This document shows positions 1 to 6,679 of a stretch of DNA of 8,995 bases, piece by piece. The DNA is taken from the IMG/VR virus record IMGVR_UViG_2609460067_000017; one strand, 5' to 3'. Below the pieces are notes generated by a model. It searched no databases and was not told where the DNA came from. It saw only the letters and a program-made list of their open reading frames with translations. The stretch is from a virus. Its lineage: Duplodnaviria; Heunggongvirae; Uroviricota; Caudoviricetes. The first letter of the stretch is position 1, and the number at the start of each line of letters is the position of its first letter. The translations under genes and the position numbers were made by a program.

Positions 1-573
1 ATGCTGATTGGCTACATACGTGTGTCAACAAATGACCAAAACACAGATTTGCAACGCAATGCATTAATGTGCGCAGGATGTGAACAGATTTTTGAGGACA
101 AAATGAGCGGAACCAAGTCGGAACGACCAGGCCTGAAACGCGCTTTAAAGTGCCTTAAAAGAGGGGATACATTGGTGGTCTGGAAGCTGGATCGGTTGGG
201 TAGAAGAATGAAACACCTCATTGCTCTCACAGAAGAGCTACGCGCAAAAGGTGTCAATTTTCGCAGTCTGACGGATTCAATCGATACCAGCACTCCGATG
301 GGAAGGTTCTTTTTTCATATGATGGGTGCACTGGCAGAAATGGAGCGTGAACTGATAGTTGAGCGCACGCTGGCTGGACTGGCTGCTGCGCGAGCACAAG
401 GAAGAGTTGGAGGACGTCGCCCGAAACTGACGAAGGAGCAGCATGAGCAGATCGCAAGATTGCTCCAGAAAGGGTATGACAGAAAGCGGCTGGCAATTAT
501 CTATGATATTGGACTGTCAACGATCTACCGCTATCACCCTGTTGGGACTGTCATAACGCAACCTGAAATGTAA
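1..573 (+). CDS. pin: Serine-type DNA invertase (Pin/Gin/Hin/Cin family site-specific recombinase)
   Basis: 190-aa ORF starting MLIGYIRVSTNDQ, the canonical resolvase/invertase N-terminal catalytic-serine motif, with a C-terminal HTH-like tail; TAA stop at 571-573. Near full-length resemblance, by recall, to E. coli prophage Pin invertases. The ATG is at window position 1, so any upstream crossover site or invertible segment is outside the window. Confidence 0.9.
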   Translation: MLIGYIRVSTNDQNTDLQRNALMCAGCEQIFEDKMSGTKSERPGLKRALKCLKRGDTLVVWKLDRLGRRMKHLIALTEELRAKGVNFRSLTDSIDTSTPMGRFFFHMMGALAEMERELIVERTLAGLAAARAQGRVGGRRPKLTKEQHEQIARLLQKGYDRKRLAIIYDIGLSTIYRYHPVGTVITQPEM

Positions 574-1631: not shown

Positions 1632-1665
1632 TGCTCCCTACAATTAAACCTTGTATCCTTACGGT

Positions 1666-2079
1666 ATGAACACAAAAACGAAAAACATGGCTTTTGCTAG
1701 CCGACTACAACGGATTCTAAAAGACTTAGGCTGGTCTCAATCTGAGTTAGCTCGCCATATTGGGGTTACGGCTCAATCAGTTCAGGCATGGTGTAATGGG
1801 GTAACTCCAAGAAAAGATAAATTAGACAAGCTAGCAAAAGTGACCGGATACCCTGTTCATTTTTTCTTCATGAATGAAGGGGAATATTTGGATGAATCCA
1901 CACTACACCCGGGTAATTACAATCAAGAACTAACCCCGCAAGAACAGGCTCTACTGCAACTATTCAGAGGACTGCCTGAGAGCGAAAAAAATAAATTAAT
2001 CAATGAGCTAAAAGAAAAAAGAGAGCACTTCGATCTACTGCTAAAAGAACTACTTGAAGCCAAAAACCAGACAAAATAG
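1666..2079 (+). CDS. XRE-family HTH transcriptional repressor (cI-like immunity repressor)
   Basis: N-terminal HTH (LGWSQSELARHIGVTAQSVQAWCNG) typical of XRE/cI-type repressors; divergent from the Cro-like gene across an operator-containing intergenic region; same strand as the int-ward early operon, as in lambda. Start is ambiguous (TTG 1651, ATG 1666 or ATG 1687); none has a strong SD, so a leaderless or weakly initiated start is possible. TAG stop at 2077-2079. Confidence 0.7.
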   Translation: MNTKTKNMAFASRLQRILKDLGWSQSELARHIGVTAQSVQAWCNGVTPRKDKLDKLAKVTGYPVHFFFMNEGEYLDESTLHPGNYNQELTPQEQALLQLFRGLPESEKNKLINELKEKREHFDLLLKELLEAKNQTK

Positions 2080-2197
2080 TTCAGTTCAAATTTCCAGGCC
2101 AGCCGCTGCTGGCATGCAACTTTCCCCTAACACAAAAACACCTTTACACAGTGAATATTTTTTTGCCCCTCACTACAAATTATTTTTTAAAAACACA

Positions 2198-2226
2198 TTG
2201 ACCATTACAAATACAAATTGTAAAGT
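2198..2226 (+). promoter_or_regulatory. Candidate pL-like early promoter overlapped by a third operator
   Basis: -35-like TTGACC (2198-2203), 17-nt spacer, -10-like TAAAGT (2221-2226); overlapped by TTACAAATacaAATTGTAA (2206-2224), which shares the TTACAAAT half-site with the two operators at 1593-1631. A partial copy CTACAAATTAT lies at 2173-2183. Confidence 0.4.
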
Positions 2227-2562
2227 CACTTTCATCAACAACGCTTACCCAGCGGCAGTTGTTCAGAAACACGTTCTGACAGCCGGAAAGACGGCACCAA
2301 ATTTTGCGCGTCGGCGCCAACACGGTGACAGAGGGAAAGACTTCACCGGCATATGGCACATGTGTCGAAGCGGTCTGGATGGAAGCGGAGCCTTAACGCG
2401 TTGTCTCCATAGCAGGTAGCCGGAATGTGCAAGCCACAGCCAGGTATGAGCGATTGATTCACCATCAAGGCGATACGGTGTGACCACCAGGGAAGAGTCC
2501 TGGCTACAACACGAGAGCGCACTTCATCGACTCAACTTTGAGCTTTGTCGTTAAATTTTGAA

Positions 2563-2648
2563 ATGGCGGAGTGCGCTCCCGGTTGTGGTGAACAGGTGTT
2601 TAACGGGAACTCCCTGCCCGTTACCCGGTTCGATTCCGGGCGCCCATC
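2563..2648 (+). other. tRNA-like element or fragment (T-arm CCCGG-TTCGATT-CCGGG followed by an acceptor-like CGCCCAT)
   Basis: A perfect T-stem/loop motif at 2624-2640 (GGTTCGATTCC embedded in a 5-bp GC stem) followed by 7 nt and a C. No CCA is encoded and I could not pair a clean 5' acceptor strand (ATGGCGG at 2563-2569 pairs only 5 of 7), so this is a tRNA-like structure or tRNA 3' fragment, not a confident tRNA gene. Confidence 0.2.
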
Positions 2649-2672
2649 ATCAATTTGCTGTGTTTAGTCTTT

Positions 2673-2700
2673 GCCCAGTCCGCACGATGGGCCATTTTTT
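2673..2700 (+). terminator. Possible weak intrinsic terminator (GCCCA-N10-TGGGC followed by CA and T6)
   Basis: 5-bp GC-rich stem at 2673-2677 and 2688-2692, then a T6 run at 2695-2700; about 25 nt downstream of the tRNA-like motif. The loop is long, so strength is uncertain. Confidence 0.25.
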
Positions 2701-2981
2701 CACACAGCCAGGTTTTATCGCTGTGCCTGAGTCCCCAACAGGAGAGGCCAAACCCGCAGCGTGACACCAGGGAAAGACCGGAGGAAGTACCACGCCTGAC
2801 CAGCGTTGACCATGAGCCTGACCAGCTCAAAACAGGAAAGACCAGCCCGGGCCTGACCAGCCCTGTACGGTCGTAATGGAAACATAACGACGCCGGAAAC
2901 GTAACCGGCACCCTTTAGATAGCAAAAGACCCGCACAAGGCGGGCCAGTTACCCCGAACGGCGACCAAACCATTCGGATTT

Positions 2982-3005
2982 ATCACAAGTGACCAAACTT
3001 GTGAT
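2982..3005. repeat. Perfect 9-bp inverted repeat (ATCACAAGT-gaccaa-ACTTGTGAT)
   Basis: Perfect palindromic arms at 2982-2990 and 2997-3005; it overlaps copy 1 of the ATGAGGAAAGACCA motif by 2 nt and lies upstream of the first early ORF. Could be a protein-binding site or an RNA hairpin in the early leader. Confidence 0.5.
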
Positions 3006-3017
3006 GAGGAAAGACCA
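3004..3017 (+). repeat. Copy 1 of conserved motif ATGAGGAAAGACCA (followed by ACG, not ATG)
   Basis: The 13-nt core ATGAGGAAAGACC matches the copies at 3427 and 6602 exactly. Here no ORF follows directly, which may mark a decayed gene start or a recombination joint. Confidence 0.6.
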
Positions 3018-3089
3018 ACGACACTGACGCTATGGAAGCTGATCAATATTCGCTGATCGGCTCTGAGTATACATTACCAAGGAGTCGCT

Positions 3090-3410
3090 ATGGAAGCGCG
3101 CACCATCCCAGTAACACTCTTTATTCATTATGCAACTTCAACTTTCAGCCACGAAAAGCTGCTTGTTGCGACTGTTGATATGTCAAAAAATTTTCCAGAC
3201 AGGTACATCCTTCTGGAAAGCCGCGAAATTGAAATTACCGTTAACCAGCCCGAGCCAATCGACATCATCGGTTTACAGGTCGAGCAACTGCGTGAACAAA
3301 AACAGAAAACAGTCGCCGACGCCCAACAGCGTATTGCTGCTATCGATGACAAAATCCAGCAGTTACTTTGCATCGAATACACGCCAGATACCGATGAGCT
3401 CCCCTACTAA
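3090..3410 (+). CDS. Hypothetical early-operon protein (106 aa, predicted coiled-coil C-terminus)
   Basis: ORF with a strong SD AAGGAG (3077-3082) 7 nt upstream of the ATG at 3090; TAA stop at 3408-3410; C-terminal region rich in Q/E/K heptad-like residues. No recognisable family. Confidence 0.6.
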   Translation: MEARTIPVTLFIHYATSTFSHEKLLVATVDMSKNFPDRYILLESREIEITVNQPEPIDIIGLQVEQLREQKQKTVADAQQRIAAIDDKIQQLLCIEYTPDTDELPY

Positions 3411-3426
3411 AAACCACTGACCTGTA

Positions 3427-3440
3427 ATGAGGAAAGACCA
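3427..3440 (+). repeat. Copy 2 of conserved motif ATGAGGAAAGACCA, immediately 5' of the 738-aa ORF start codon
   Basis: The motif ends at 3440 and the ATG is at 3441; the embedded GAGGA acts as the SD. Confidence 0.7.
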
Positions 3441-5657
3441 ATGACCATTTTTAACGGCTTGTTAGAAGCGAAAAAAGGCGCGCTCAAAAACGGCGCGATC
3501 CCGGCGCTGGCCATCGCCATCGCCGCCCCTAACAAAAAAGTTGCCGAGAACATCATCATCGGCAAATTGTGGGAAGCCTACCCTGACCACGGCGACAACT
3601 ATTTCAAACCTAAAATCTGGGAAGATGCCCCGGGCCAACCGCGCCCAGGCGTCGGTGAGTTTGATGAGACGTTTGCCACAGAACACAGTTTTGATGGCGA
3701 AAAATGGGTAGTTAACACTCCTGTTGATTCAGATTGCAGTTCAGCAGATATCTCACAGGTTAGCGACCTGATGAAACTGCCGGCTCGTGAACGATTCGCC
3801 GCCGTTCTGCTGTTCAGCCACGACGCCAACGAAGTCGACAGTGAATTGCTTGTGCAGACGCGTGAATACCTGGAGATGCTCGATAACAGTGATACTGACA
3901 GTGAGGATGAGGTTGACGCGTTTAACCGCATCGTTCTTGATGCCATGGTGGCGTGTAAGCCCATCGAGTACATGCATATTGCTGGATTGAATAATCTGGT
4001 ACATGCAATTTTGGCAAGTTGCGATACCCAGGAACAAAACCCGACCAGTTGGACTATCTCCAAATTTATAAAAAAATGGGTAGAGAATCCCGGTAAACGA
4101 GATGAAATGCTGCCGGAGGTAAAACCAGAAACAGCATCCGCACGTCCTTACAAACAGACTCACGCCACTCTGGATCGTGAAATTGCCTGCGCCCTGTTAC
4201 CTGTTGCCCCGGAAAAAATCACCCCCAGCATCCTGAAAGCGGCAGACGAAATAATCAGTCAGGACAGGGAAGATTTTAAACGCTGGTCAATGGCCTTGCG
4301 CACAACGGATCAGATCCTTGCCTATGACCGCGCATCAGTATTCGGTGTTATTCAGAGCGCCCCCGCAAAAGACACGTACCACTTCCCACAATCCCTGCGC
4401 AGTCACATCGACAACTGGCTGCAAGCTAACGGGCAGCGTGATGCAAATGCTGTTGAAGAGAAGCCAAAGGAAGCAGCACCCAAGGATGATGTAAAAGTCA
4501 CCAACCACGGCGGCGGACGATTCTCAATTGATGGGATGATGTCAGAAACACCCTCAAATCAGGGCGAAAAAAGCGAAGCTGCAAATGCTGGAGAACGTAG
4601 TTTGCAGCAGTTGCGTGAGCAGTTTGTCACGCCTCGCCATGTGTATGACGTACCTGAAAATAACGCCGTATCACAGAGGGAACCTGCAGCTATTACCCTG
4701 GCAGAAGAGACTCCTCCACAAGAACAACTTAGCGAGCAGGTAAAGGATCTGGTGCAGAACGTTGACGCGCTGGTTGAGCGGATCCATGCCGAAGAGCACA
4801 AGCGGCAGAATGCAATCTCAGCTATCGAAACGGAGTTAAAGGACTCAGATGACACGGATAACCTGGCATTGTGGAAGAACGTATTCAAAACCGATGAGCG
4901 CTTCACCAGTGCTTTCTCTCAGAATGGCGGCGGCACATCCATCAACGGCACTTATATAGCGATGAAAGCGACTCGCGAATTTGGGCCATTTGGTATTGGC
5001 TGGGGGGTAGAGGTGCTGGAGGAGCGCTTTGATAAAGGCGCACCAATAGTTCGCAAAAAACAGGTTGGTGAAAAAATAGAATGGGATCTGATTCAAGACG
5101 GTGTTGGCGGGTACCTATGTGAAATGCACCACACCATGAAAGTGAGAGTCTGGTACATATTGAATGGGGTACGCGGTGAGTCCGAGGCTTACGGATGCAC
5201 ACCTTATATCTACGACACTAAATACGGACCAACAAGCGACGGCGAAGCACCGAAGAAATCCTGGACGGATGCTGTTAAGAAAGCGCTATCCCCTCTCGGA
5301 TTCAGCGCCGATATTTTCATGGGCCTGTACGACAATCCGGAATACCGCCAGAGGAATAAAGCTGAGTTTGATATCAAGAATGCCAGCGAGAATGCGGAAG
5401 ATGCTACCCGTCTGCGTAAGGAACTGGATGAGAAGCTTATCAACGTTGCCAATACGCTGGCCGCCGCGGTAACCGCCAACGAAGTAAACAAGGTATTTGG
5501 CCTCATCGCCCGCGAAGTGGATGTACACAGGAAAGCAGCGGAAACCAAAGGCGATAAAGAATATTCATCGTATCTGGGATCACGTCTGCGCCGTATCACC
5601 GACATTAAAACTGAACGCCTCGCCGCCCTTACCGCTGCACAGGAGCAAACAGCATGA
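3441..5657 (+). CDS. Large prophage protein with a C-terminal Rad52-family single-strand annealing (SSAP/Sak-like) domain fused to an uncharacterised ~330-aa N-terminal domain and a charged low-complexity linker
   Basis: Uninterrupted 738-aa ORF. Residues ~470-640 (nt ~4850-5360) carry recalled Rad52 signatures: GGG...YI...FGxxGW (FSQNGGGTSINGTYIAMKATREFGPFGIGWG versus human RAD52 [29 protein letters not shown]) and the helix K..WTDAVKKAL.PLGF......GLYDNPEY (versus [28 protein letters not shown]). The N-terminal ~330 aa have no family I recognise. The TGA stop overlaps the next gene's ATG (ATGA at 5654-5657). Confidence 0.8.
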   Translation: MTIFNGLLEAKKGALKNGAIPALAIAIAAPNKKVAENIIIGKLWEAYPDHGDNYFKPKIWEDAPGQPRPGVGEFDETFATEHSFDGEKWVVNTPVDSDCSSADISQVSDLMKLPARERFAAVLLFSHDANEVDSELLVQTREYLEMLDNSDTDSEDEVDAFNRIVLDAMVACKPIEYMHIAGLNNLVHAILASCDTQEQNPTSWTISKFIKKWVENPGKRDEMLPEVKPETASARPYKQTHATLDREIACALLPVAPEKITPSILKAADEIISQDREDFKRWSMALRTTDQILAYDRASVFGVIQSAPAKDTYHFPQSLRSHIDNWLQANGQRDANAVEEKPKEAAPKDDVKVTNHGGGRFSIDGMMSETPSNQGEKSEAANAGERSLQQLREQFVTPRHVYDVPENNAVSQREPAAITLAEETPPQEQLSEQVKDLVQNVDALVERIHAEEHKRQNAISAIETELKDSDDTDNLALWKNVFKTDERFTSAFSQNGGGTSINGTYIAMKATREFGPFGIGWGVEVLEERFDKGAPIVRKKQVGEKIEWDLIQDGVGGYLCEMHHTMKVRVWYILNGVRGESEAYGCTPYIYDTKYGPTSDGEAPKKSWTDAVKKALSPLGFSADIFMGLYDNPEYRQRNKAEFDIKNASENAEDATRLRKELDEKLINVANTLAAAVTANEVNKVFGLIAREVDVHRKAAETKGDKEYSSYLGSRLRRITDIKTERLAALTAAQEQTA

Positions 5658-6223
5658 GCACTGCTATCGCTATTGCAAAAGAATATGCCAGTCTGATTGA
5701 CCTGTTAGAAACCGCCGATGAACTGACGCCAGAGATGATCGCCGACACGCTTGAAGGCATGGAAGGAGAACTGGGAGACAAACTGGACGCCATGATGGTC
5801 ATCTGCCGTAATTTACAGGGCAATGCCAATACCTGCGCTGAAGAAATGTCTCGCCTGGCAACCCGTAAGACGTCCTTTGAAGGCAAGGAAAAAGCAATTC
5901 GAAAGCATATGCTCACCTGCCTGCAAGCTGCTGGCCTGGATAAACTGAAAACCGCAAAAAACACATTTACTGATGCACAGGGGGCTATCCGGGTAATTAT
6001 CGATAGCAAAGATAAGATCCCGGATGAGTATGAGGGCGTGTCACTTGTTGATGTAGAAACGGTTATTACACCAAACAAGCGAGCCATTAAAGAAGTGATT
6101 GAATCTGCGGAGGCGGTTGCCGCCGAAATACTGGCGCGTGGAGAAACACCACCAGCCGAGTTATTAAACCCGGTACCAGGCGCACATCTGGAACGCGGCG
6201 AACGGTCACTGAGGATACGCTAA
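5654..6223 (+). CDS. Siphovirus Gp157-like protein (prophage recombination/replication-module accessory protein)
   Basis: 189-aa acidic helical protein; its pattern and its position next to an SSAP gene match my recollection of the Sipho_Gp157 family. SD AGGAG at 5641-5645; start overlaps the upstream stop (ATGA); its stop overlaps the next start (TAATG at 6221-6225). Confidence 0.65.
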   Translation: MSTAIAIAKEYASLIDLLETADELTPEMIADTLEGMEGELGDKLDAMMVICRNLQGNANTCAEEMSRLATRKTSFEGKEKAIRKHMLTCLQAAGLDKLKTAKNTFTDAQGAIRVIIDSKDKIPDEYEGVSLVDVETVITPNKRAIKEVIESAEAVAAEILARGETPPAELLNPVPGAHLERGERSLRIR

Positions 6224-6405
6224 TGCTTAAACTCACATTAAAGCGTGGTGACGCGGTTCACCTGGTACTTGCCGATGGTACCAATGGCATTATTGAAGCA
6301 CGGAGCCGCTGCGAACTTGGGCTACACCTGCCAGAAAACATTAAGGTCACTCGGGAGAAATCGGCATTCACCCCACAAGAACTGATTACGCCTAATCAGA
6401 AATAA
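6223..6405 (+). CDS. Small CsrA-like protein (60 aa), translationally coupled to the Gp157-like gene
   Basis: Ungapped alignment by eye to E. coli CsrA (61 aa) over residues 1-47: M1, L2, L4, T5, G9, G33, P37, V42, R44 and E45 are identical, with conservative matches at K7/R7, D10/E10, L34/V34 and I40/V40. This includes the positions corresponding to CsrA L4 and R44, which are important for RNA binding. TAATG overlap with the upstream gene; SD-like GAGGA upstream. Confidence 0.55.
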   Translation: MLKLTLKRGDAVHLVLADGTNGIIEARSRCELGLHLPENIKVTREKSAFTPQELITPNQK

Positions 6406-6454: not shown

Positions 6455-6679
6455 ATGCTGCGATGGCAACCGGGAGCAACTCTGCTCTCCGCATTTGATA
6501 TCAAAATTGGTCGACTGTCGGCCAGCGTCAGGAAACAGACTTTGACCGAGTCTGATATTGCCCGTGCCTGCCAGAAGGCAGATGACGCAATAAGCTACAT
6601 AATGAGGAAAGACCATGAAAAGCGATCACGACATAATCACCAGAGAAGAAATGGTCGAGCTGACGGGAAGCCCACTTAA
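6455..6679 (+). CDS. Hypothetical small basic protein (74 aa from the ATG at 6455)
   Basis: SD GGAGGA (6445-6450) precedes the ATG at 6455; overlaps the start of the next ORF by 65 nt in a different frame. The C-terminus is very basic. Coding status is uncertain. Confidence 0.35.
   Translation: MLRWQPGATLLSAFDIKIGRLSASVRKQTLTESDIARACQKADDAISYIMRKDHEKRSRHNHQRRNGRADGKPT
6602..6614 (+). repeat. Copy 3 of conserved motif ATGAGGAAAGACC, immediately 5' of the excisionase-like ORF start codon
   Basis: The motif ends at 6614 and the ATG is at 6615; identical 13-mer to the copies at 3004 and 3427. Confidence 0.7.

Follow-up and report, generated by a model that had tools for sequence, protein, structure and literature searches.

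The window (the whole 8,995-nt stretch of DNA that was analysed) carries a 738-aa ORF that belongs to the early-left operon of an E. coli lambdoid prophage located at tRNA-Leu (leuZ). The ORF starts with ATG at 3441, stops with TGA at 5655-5657, exactly as given in the original prediction, and is preceded by an RBS-like GAGGA. It is the second gene of a cassette with the conserved order orf106, annealase, Sipho_Gp157, orf60, and the features of the cassette and of the protein are as follows.

3090..3410, + strand: orf106 (phrog_2479), first gene of the cassette
3441..5657, + strand: 738-aa ORF (WP_000151806.1; from the ORF list) with platform, linker, Rad52-fold annealase and helical tail
3441..3716, + strand: head sub-domain, aa 1-92, a small alpha/beta unit (tagged Pfam PF27430, YdfE_N)
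3762..4115, + strand: acidic helical sub-domain, aa 108-225, net charge -11 (AF2 helices H115-223, composition)
4137..4454, + strand: RecE-N-like helical segment, aa 233-338, with the motifs DREDFKRWS and YDRxSxFG (NCBIfam, PHROG, BLASTP)
4455..4850, + strand: linker, aa 339-470, acidic and poorly conserved, probably helical over the final ~40 aa
4851..5336, + strand: predicted Rad52-fold single-strand annealing core, aa 471-632
5337..5654, + strand: three-helix C-terminal tail, aa 633-738 (AF2 helices), a candidate partner- or SSB-binding module
5654..6223, + strand: Sipho_Gp157 family gene, 189 aa (Pfam PF05565, E 9e-29; phrog_253)
6223..6405, + strand: orf60 (phrog_2482), last gene of the cassette, its start overlapping the Gp157 stop (TAATG)

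Homologues of orf106 lie upstream of the annealase gene in Salmonella, in phages BUCT708 and ZF40 and in Vibrio phage VvAW1, and orf60 is conserved in Salmonella, BUCT708 and ZF40. The Gp157 gene is translationally coupled to the annealase gene through an ATGA overlap that can be read from the sequence, and it adjoins a fused or a standalone annealase gene in Salmonella, BUCT708, ZF40, PseuP_222 and Yersinia. The same order was found in a Yersinia lambdoid prophage with a 103-aa ORF, an annealase without the platform, Gp157 and a 60-aa ORF, where the two small ORFs were matched to orf106 and orf60 by position alone. As had been predicted, Pfam, PHROG and NCBIfam revealed no exonuclease gene between the repressor and int in the window operon, and no exonuclease is annotated in the complete genome of BUCT708, where the same module is present. 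On the other hand, the idea that such a module is unusual is not borne out, as a 2025 survey (PMC12315714) of 246 enterobacterial lambdoid recombination modules counted 84 with no gene for a nuclease.

Of 5426 complete E. coli genomes, 463 (~8.5%) carry the gene; 439 of these have an intact ORF, and in some strains it is interrupted by an IS insertion. A great many Salmonella genomes have the gene as well. We gauged selection on the gene by its cross-genus conservation profile and found that the full-length architecture is kept at 33-76% identity among E. coli, Salmonella, Klebsiella-type sequences, phage BUCT708 and Pectobacterium phage ZF40, both of them isolated phages that carry the module, and recurs in ~23 clusters at 50% identity. 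Among Salmonella phage records none matched near full length, and the one listed, SPN3UB, matches only within aa 142-324. Because the full-length architecture is conserved at these identities across genera and phages, the ORF is, on sequence comparison, no chance reading frame and the 738-aa protein a real, conserved fusion, as originally proposed. An identical CDS in SK1144 is annotated as a hypothetical protein, and the 738-aa protein is a full-length member of phrog_2489, which PHROG labels 'exonuclease'; across the family the labels are either 'exonuclease' (phrog_2489, phrog_7838, ZF40 gp07) or 'hypothetical protein' (PGAP).

The C-terminal third had been predicted to be of the Rad52 family, and its identification as a Rad52/Sak-type DNA-annealing domain is supported by the modelled fold, by motif alignment and by a sub-threshold Pfam signal. 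In the model, aa ~471-632 adopt the Rad52 N-terminal-domain fold with its core of beta-sheet and long basic helix, and this region retains the glycine-rich motifs and the basic helix KK..TD..KK of the Rad52 family. The previously quoted motifs GGG...FGxxGW and K..TDAVKKAL..GF are present in the translation, where we read NGGGTS at aa 495-500, FGPFGIGWG at aa 514-522 and KKSWTDAVKKALSPLGF at aa 605-621. The suggested check against Pfam PF04098 (Rad52_Rad22) gave a divided answer: the window protein scores 13.5 bits (E 0.069), under the gathering score of 20.3, but a consistent remote signal comes from the family, of whose 28 members 25 reach E<=1 (best E 8.3e-5). When aligned with hhalign to the RAD52 sequence, the probability was only 23%; in that alignment the motifs GGG, FG..GW and KK..TD..K(K/R)AL..G stand opposite their RAD52 equivalents, and KKSWTDAVKKAL is paired with the RAD52 stretch containing K152/R153, which we take to be ssDNA-groove residues. 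K145, K146, D150, K153 and K154 are invariant across the annealase family, RAD52 R156 is not conserved and is Ser at that position in the window protein, and the fused forms have Ser or Thr in place of a Lys that is near-invariant in standalone annealases. Single-sequence searches of Pfam, NCBIfam and the PDB with the whole protein returned no annealase match, nor did RAD52 come up when PDB sequences were searched with a profile, so the annealase call rests on fold and sub-threshold profile evidence.

The core and the tail are the best-conserved parts of the protein, with identities of 0.56 and 0.55 across the fusions. The tail of ~100 aa that had been described as helical consists of three long helices (H173-215, H219-242 and H246-277 in the C-terminal AF2 model) and is shared by the standalone homologues, which are 240-280 aa long and in some phages are annotated as RAD52-like or SSAP. 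The fold is that of the Rad52 SSAP superfamily, which includes the human RAD52 N-terminal domain, yeast Mgm101, staphylococcal 80alpha Sak and lactococcal Sak. Compared to the Rad52/Sak annealases, the window protein is three times longer, with an additional 470 aa of N-terminal platform and linker, and has an extra beta-hairpin insertion as well as its own three-helix tail. We found no report of such a platform and linker on a Rad52/Sak annealase in the literature searched. In its architecture the gene is a novel form of a recombinase type already known, and it has been mis-annotated as an exonuclease.

The N-terminal region that had been taken for a single domain of ~330 aa is present, but it comprises three sub-domains (aa 1-92, 108-225 and 233-338) joined by linkers of low confidence. 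The head is conserved about as well as the annealase (0.51 vs 0.56), and its PF27430 assignment comes from a precomputed tag on the identical protein P0001 and on homologues. The helical sub-domain has a conservation of 0.26 across the fusions and is duplicated in some homologues, with an extra copy of the 'ARERFAAVLLF' type in P0006 and P0016. The third segment matches phrog_607 and phrog_2082, and its aa 233-336 align with positions 262-370 of the NCBIfam exodeoxyribonuclease VIII profile PRK09709 (E 1.9e-12, 46 bits, against a cutoff of 1269). The linker had been called charged and Pro/Glu/Lys-rich; it is acidic (net charge -12) with 14% Glu, but Pro and Lys make up only 6% each, and it has an identity of 0.18 with a gap fraction of 0.2-0.3 across the fusions. 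The net charge of the whole protein is -32.

A nuclease had been considered for the N-terminal domain, but structure prediction and structural comparison gave no enzyme fold in aa 1-338, and according to the model this region is a non-catalytic platform. The N-terminal AF2 model is only moderate (pLDDT 75.6, pTM 0.41), with pLDDT <50 at its end (aa 339-345), so that a small or novel catalytic site may remain in aa 1-338. What the original prediction had missed is that the N-terminal region is homologous to its non-catalytic counterpart in RecE and to that of a DEDD-exonuclease family in the same slot. The protein resembles RecE of the Rac prophage in where its gene lies in the operon, with the immunity region on one side and xis-int on the other, in the homologous non-catalytic segment described above, and in its plan of a long N-terminal region of unexplained function, a linker and a C-terminal DNA-processing domain (PMC11611040). 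Unlike RecE, it lacks both the Exonuc_VIII (PF06630) N-terminal head and the PD-(D/E)xK (DUF3799) nuclease domain; Pfam found no DUF3799 or other nuclease match in the window protein, whereas DUF3799 is present in true RecE-type relatives. Its C-terminal domain is instead the predicted annealase, which in Rac is the separate protein RecT. The Gifsy-1/2 'recE' genes (Bossi laboratory) were considered as members of the 738-aa family but, given the lack of near-full-length matches among Salmonella phage records, are probably true RecE types.

Platform aa 18-331 are also homologous to the DEDD protein of phage HannyBb (26% identity, E 2e-19, BLASTP). The 823-aa 'exonuclease' of ECO26_1771 / HannyBb shares the head and the DRED.KR.S / YDR...FG motifs and, like the window gene, is encoded directly upstream of xis-int. 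It differs from the window protein in its C-terminus, which is an Rv2179c-like DEDD 3'-5' exonuclease (PF16473, E 2e-67), and its loci are without orf106, Gp157 and orf60. Single-linkage clustering had chained all unclassified C-termini together, and they were sorted by HMM-based classification. Among 80 long representatives, 23 carry the annealase, 11 a DEDD domain, 11 a PD-(D/E)xK domain and 35 no recognised effector, and the platform-only proteins form phrog_26058. As judged by homology, the platform recurs elsewhere at the corresponding genomic position, where it is joined to a DEDD 3'-5' exonuclease or to a RecE PD-(D/E)xK 5'-3' nuclease, or stands alone. A possible fourth fusion type, P0334, with a RecE-N segment and a RecT-like C-terminal part, may be a recE-recT deletion fusion and was given little weight.

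We think it likely that the gene product is a single-strand annealing recombinase of the lambdoid early-left recombination module, equipped with a non-catalytic platform. By analogy with RAD52, Mgm101 and Sak, the Rad52-fold domain would oligomerise, bind ssDNA in its basic groove and pair complementary strands, and the three-helix tail probably contacts a partner, which may be host SSB or the co-translated Gp157. The platform, made up of the head tagged YdfE_N, the acidic helical sub-domain and the RecE-N-like segment, would be tethered through the flexible acidic linker of ~130 aa; its architecture suggests a portable targeting or assembly module that would bring the attached DNA-end-processing activity to a common site or host partner. 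Host nucleases or replication forks would supply the ssDNA substrates, as happens in P22-type modules that have no nuclease, and Gp157, going by its label, possibly shields DNA ends.

An alternative that we regard as unlikely is that the protein mainly serves counter-defence or host-nuclease modulation, the acidic platform and linker being a DNA mimic or decoy (e.g., against RecBCD or restriction) and the Rad52-fold domain mainly a DNA or oligomer anchor. The strong acidity of the helical domain and linker would fit this role, and the existence of platform-only proteins means that the platform does something by itself. The phrog_253 label of Gp157 is 'Mu Gam-like end protection', and PHROG, RefSeq and PMC12315714 treat the type as MuGam-like, with others annotating it as Gam-like or as a host-nuclease inhibitor; the ZF40 module is also scored anti-RecBCD positive there. 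Our own comparison of Gp157 with Mu Gam by hhalign gave a probability of 0.7% from a shallow 5-sequence alignment, and a profile search from a similarly shallow alignment found no PDB sequence match. A defence or anti-defence role had also been raised in the original prediction, but none of the four cassette proteins (orf106, the fusion protein, Gp157, orf60) matched a PADLOC defence model at E<=0.01, and in structure the platform matches no known DNA mimic. The high conservation of the annealase core and tail, with the residues of the RAD52-aligned basic helix kept, further argues against this alternative, as does the occurrence of the same cassette in Yersinia with a standalone annealase and no platform.

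It is very improbable that the protein is instead a two-in-one recombinase in which an N-terminal exonuclease of new fold resects dsDNA ends and the same polypeptide anneals the product, even though the same platform is otherwise joined to exonucleases, the family is labelled 'exonuclease', the module has no separate exonuclease and the N-terminal model is of only moderate confidence. Least probable of all, a non-functional ORF made by a deletion or frameshift that joined two genes in a defective prophage could be suspected from the rearranged window prophage, in which an invertase abuts a cII-like gene, from the IS insertions and from K-12 YdfE, presumably a truncated relative, but is effectively refuted by conservation, as the ~23 clusters share the architecture with head, annealase and tail all conserved, the gene is present in isolated, viable phages and intact in most E. 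coli carriers, and close relatives uniformly split into two genes were not seen.

Returning to the platform-bearing annealase, the window annealase and Gp157 have their orthologues in ZF40 gp07 and gp06, respectively. In PMC12315714, the ZF40 module is scored nuclease negative and SAP negative, and RecE-related early-left proteins without a nuclease domain are termed 'RecE-2', with no roles assigned to them there. The name 'RecE-2' may correspond to the fused-annealase family or to the platform-only phrog_26058 family. The P22-type module, described in PMC12315714 as Erf plus the Abc anti-RecBCD function with no nuclease, would have the same layout if Gp157 is an end-protection or anti-nuclease protein, whereas its proteins are unrelated and the window annealase bears a RecE-like platform. 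We also put forward, tentatively and with considerable doubt, a broader proposal, namely that the RecE N-terminal region is one version of a portable non-catalytic platform fitted to one of several interchangeable partners (a nuclease of 5'-3' polarity, a DEDD nuclease of 3'-5' polarity, a Rad52-type annealase, or none) and would steer these to a host target or DNA structure that they share, and that the strand-annealing protein 'missing' from ZF40-type prophages, and from many E. coli and Salmonella prophages taken to be 'Rec-minus', may be the fused annealase.

Since the database label is 'exonuclease' or 'hypothetical', prophages with this gene have probably been counted so far as lacking a recombinase. 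Annotating the annealase would alter the set of recombination-proficient prophages, which bears on models of mosaicism involving Rad52-like recombinases, and the ZF40-type module would become SAP-positive, filling a gap in the survey (PMC12315714), which leaves ZF40 without an annealing protein and the 'RecE-2' proteins without roles. Recombineering may gain from this protein a new annealase that is native to E. coli, with natural platform-plus and platform-minus versions that can be compared. The main value of the finding is the inroad that it offers to the unexplained N-terminal region of RecE, with relevance to RecET-based linear-linear cloning, and a platform found on an annealase, on two unrelated exonucleases or alone provides a comparative handle on its function. 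If the acidic platform is an adaptor directed to host nucleases or SSB, this would account for the requirement for full-length RecE in efficient linear-linear recombination.

A lambdoid prophage is integrated at tRNA-Leu(taa), with tRNA-Cys, tRNA-Gly and pgsA adjoining; the window is its left arm, in which the 738-aa ORF occupies the classical early-left (PL-type) operon slot of phage recombination genes.

1651-2079, plus strand, cI-like HTH repressor
3090-3410, plus strand, orf106, after the repressor and a ~1-kb gap lacking annotated genes
3441-5657, plus strand, 738-aa ORF, between orf106 and the Sipho_Gp157 gene
5654-6223, plus strand, Sipho_Gp157 gene (Gp157), between the 738-aa ORF and orf60
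6223-6405, plus strand, orf60
Last two genes, plus strand, DUF4224 excisionase, then tyrosine integrase
Divergent from these, minus strand, YdaS-like cro and YdaT-like cII

Of 5426 complete E. coli genomes, 463 carry the 738-aa gene, chromosomal in every case, and PGAP labels an identical copy "hypothetical protein". Since the start of Gp157 overlaps the stop of the 738-aa ORF (ATGA) and the start of orf60 overlaps the stop of Gp157 (TAATG), each pair appears translationally coupled. In several strains (e.g. NZ_CP107114.1), the match to the gene is split in two, and an IS3-family ISEc52 transposase is annotated beneath it, suggesting interruption by ISEc52. A Hin/Pin-type DNA invertase gene directly adjoins the YdaT-like cII gene (window 1-573 and 802-1278), whereas strain SK1144 has replication genes, a DnaB-type helicase gene among them, after the same cII gene; the right side of the window prophage has therefore been deleted or rearranged.

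The original prediction read the C-terminal third of the protein as a Rad52-type annealing domain, and the ORF, its length and the motifs quoted for it are all present in the sequence. With aa 461-738 as the query, we recovered standalone proteins (240-280 aa) from Yersinia, Proteus, Providencia, Morganella and Salinicola. Phages of Pseudomonas, Vibrio, Sulfitobacter and Pelagibacter have standalone homologues too, some of them named "exonuclease" and a few already "RAD52-like annealing protein" or "single strand-annealing protein". The Pfam check proposed for this region gave a remote signal across the family, with Rad52_Rad22 matching 25 of the 28 members of its alignment (best E 8.3e-5), but the window copy misses the threshold (13.5 bits vs 20.3). 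When the family was aligned to the RAD52 N-terminal domain, the profile-sequence match was statistically weak (probability 23%, E 9e-4); in it, NGGG, FG..GW and KKSWTDAVKKAL face RAD52 AGGG, FGYNGW and a 13-residue motif, and the family-invariant K613/K614 align with RAD52 K152/R153. Together, the fold, the Pfam signal and the motif alignment support the Rad52 reading: aa ~471-632 have the Rad52/Sak fold and, by analogy with the family, would anneal DNA and oligomerize. The basic helix is conserved, as is the tail (aa 633-738), which forms three long helices, equals the core in conservation and is kept in standalone forms too.

The N-terminal platform (aa 1-338) is joined to the annealase by a linker (aa 339-470). 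An AF2 model of moderate quality (pLDDT 75.6, pTM 0.41) resolves three units in it.

aa 1-92, alpha/beta head, Pfam PF27430 "YdfE_N" from a precomputed tag
aa 108-225, acidic helical domain
aa 233-338, helical segment

The helical segment is homologous to the non-catalytic part of RecE, aa 233-336 matching the exodeoxyribonuclease VIII profile (877 positions) at 262-370. We recognized no enzyme fold in the platform, which leaves the nuclease function once proposed for it unsupported; nor did we find support for a role in defence. Two homologues, P0016 (844 aa) and P0006 (837 aa), carry an additional copy of the acidic helical module ("AHDRWIYVLLFD..."), and P0016 has a much more divergent annealase core attached to a near-identical tail, suggesting module shuffling within the family.

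By BLASTP, aa 18-331 align at 26% identity (E 2e-19) to a phage HannyBb protein of 823 aa, and the DRED.KR.S and YDR...FG motifs are kept in both. Like the window protein, it carries the platform and sits directly upstream of xis-int, but its C-terminus is an Rv2179c-like DEDD 3'-5' exonuclease (PF16473, E 2e-67) instead of a Rad52-fold annealase. An exhaustive search with aa 1-345 against 1.84 billion cluster representatives returned 136 proteins, and local HMMs sorted those of 480 aa or more, 80 in all, by effector: Rad52-type annealase (23), DEDD exonuclease (11), RecE-type PD-(D/E)xK nuclease (11, one bearing the YdfE_N head) and none recognized (35). The last class contains the platform-only family phrog_26058, in which neither a nuclease nor an annealase domain was detected; its members (e.g. 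P0274, P0289 and P0326; ~600-670 aa) combine the YdfE_N head with RecE-N-like regions and may be the "RecE-2" proteins, described in a 2025 Genome Research survey of lambdoid recombination modules as RecE-related, without a nuclease domain and of unknown roles (PMC12315714).

In 22 diverse full-length annealase fusions that are 33-76% identical to the window protein, mean identity to it is 0.51 in the head, 0.26 in the helical domain, 0.37 in the RecE-like segment, 0.18 with many gaps in the linker, 0.56 in the annealase and 0.55 in the tail. This conservation indicates that the fusion is old and constrained, and it rules out a recent join of two pseudogenised genes, the alternative raised initially.

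The cassette of orf106, annealase, Gp157 and orf60 is syntenic in E. coli, Salmonella (where the window protein's homologue has 757 aa and 55% identity), isolated phage BUCT708 and Pectobacterium phage ZF40 (gp08, gp07, gp06 and gp05, respectively). A Yersinia bercovieri lambdoid prophage has a 103-aa ORF, annealase, Gp157 and a 60-aa ORF in matching order, its annealase being 273 aa without the platform, and in Pseudomonas phage PseuP_222 Gp157 follows a standalone annealase. Since this gene order occurs in Yersinia without the platform, and orf106, Gp157 and orf60 are all absent from DEDD-fused platform loci, the partners go with the annealase and not the platform. In Vibrio VvAW1, Pseudomonas LKA5 and a Salinicola prophage, the annealase instead has a small DEDD exonuclease, an SSB and/or an RdgC-type recombination-associated gene within a few genes of it. 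Gp157 is provisionally "Mu Gam-like", a label that PHROG and RefSeq give; hhalign with a shallow alignment reproduced no similarity to Mu Gam. orf60 (6223-6405) has a weak CsrA-family Pfam match (E 0.097, aa 1-45), phage VvAW1 has a CsrA/COG1551-like gene in the equivalent module, and the Yersinia 60-aa ORF at the equivalent position is tagged DUF1317.

The missing exonuclease had been considered exceptional. Its absence held, with no exonuclease gene in the window operon and none annotated across the 43.9-kb BUCT708 genome, but its rarity did not, since the survey reports 84 of 246 enterobacterial lambdoid recombination modules as lacking a nuclease gene (PMC12315714). The same survey lists ZF40 as nuclease-negative, without a strand-annealing protein and, at the phage level, anti-RecBCD positive. 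The label "exonuclease" is widespread on fused and standalone annealase members (phrog_2489, phrog_7838, ZF40 gp07, PMG1 and the Vibrio phages D-series) and seems to have passed to them via the RecE-like segment, whose shared presence accounts for it on phrog_2489 and ZF40 gp07. The standalone phrog_7838 (242 aa) spans only the annealase and tail region, aa 472-722, in which we detected no nuclease domain.

Between the repressor gene and orf106, window 2083-3089 (~1 kb) holds no convincing ORF, is unannotated in ~448 E. coli genomes and has a GC of ~0.54, above its flanks; the Salmonella and BUCT708 loci have a comparable gap of ~0.7 kb. Possible identities are a PL leader, an antitermination region and an RNA gene. 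Within it, 2592-2702 (plus strand) matches the whole Rfam sRNA RprA model below threshold (37.4 bits vs a gathering score of 70, E 0.011), ending at a plus-strand terminator-like hairpin (2678-2692) followed by a T-run, and may on this match encode a prophage sRNA. The 14-mer ATGAGGAAAGACCA has three exact plus-strand copies (3004-3017, 3427-3440 and 6602-6615; 0.04 expected) and a further copy with 2 mismatches at 2831-2844. Two copies stand directly before the 738-aa ORF and xis start codons, with only the one before xis present in Salmonella and BUCT708; the 14-mer may mark a module junction, or act as a shared site for regulation or translation initiation. A 33-nt stretch including it (~2989-3021) matches, at 100% identity, a feature that strain 2020CK-00188 of E. 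coli has annotated as "CRISPR", which suggests a spacer acquired against this prophage.

Our literature search found no paper on the fusion of a Rad52-type annealase with a RecE-like platform, and no functional work on YdfE. The Gifsy "recE" genes (Bossi laboratory) were considered for membership in this annealase family but seem to belong to the true RecE type. The function of the RecE N-terminal domain is unknown, and full-length RecE enhances linear-linear recombination (2023 review, PMC11611040). We propose that derepression would let the operon yield the annealase together with Gp157, and that the C-terminal domains would oligomerize and anneal complementary ssDNA from host nucleases or replication forks. 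The tail may contact SSB or Gp157, and the flexible linker would allow the platform to reach a common host target or DNA structure, its task presumably being the same here as in RecE-type and DEDD-type nucleases. The 738-aa protein is a new architecture of a known recombinase type, widespread and mis-annotated, and the annealase fusion family is useful for attacking the unexplained RecE N-terminus.
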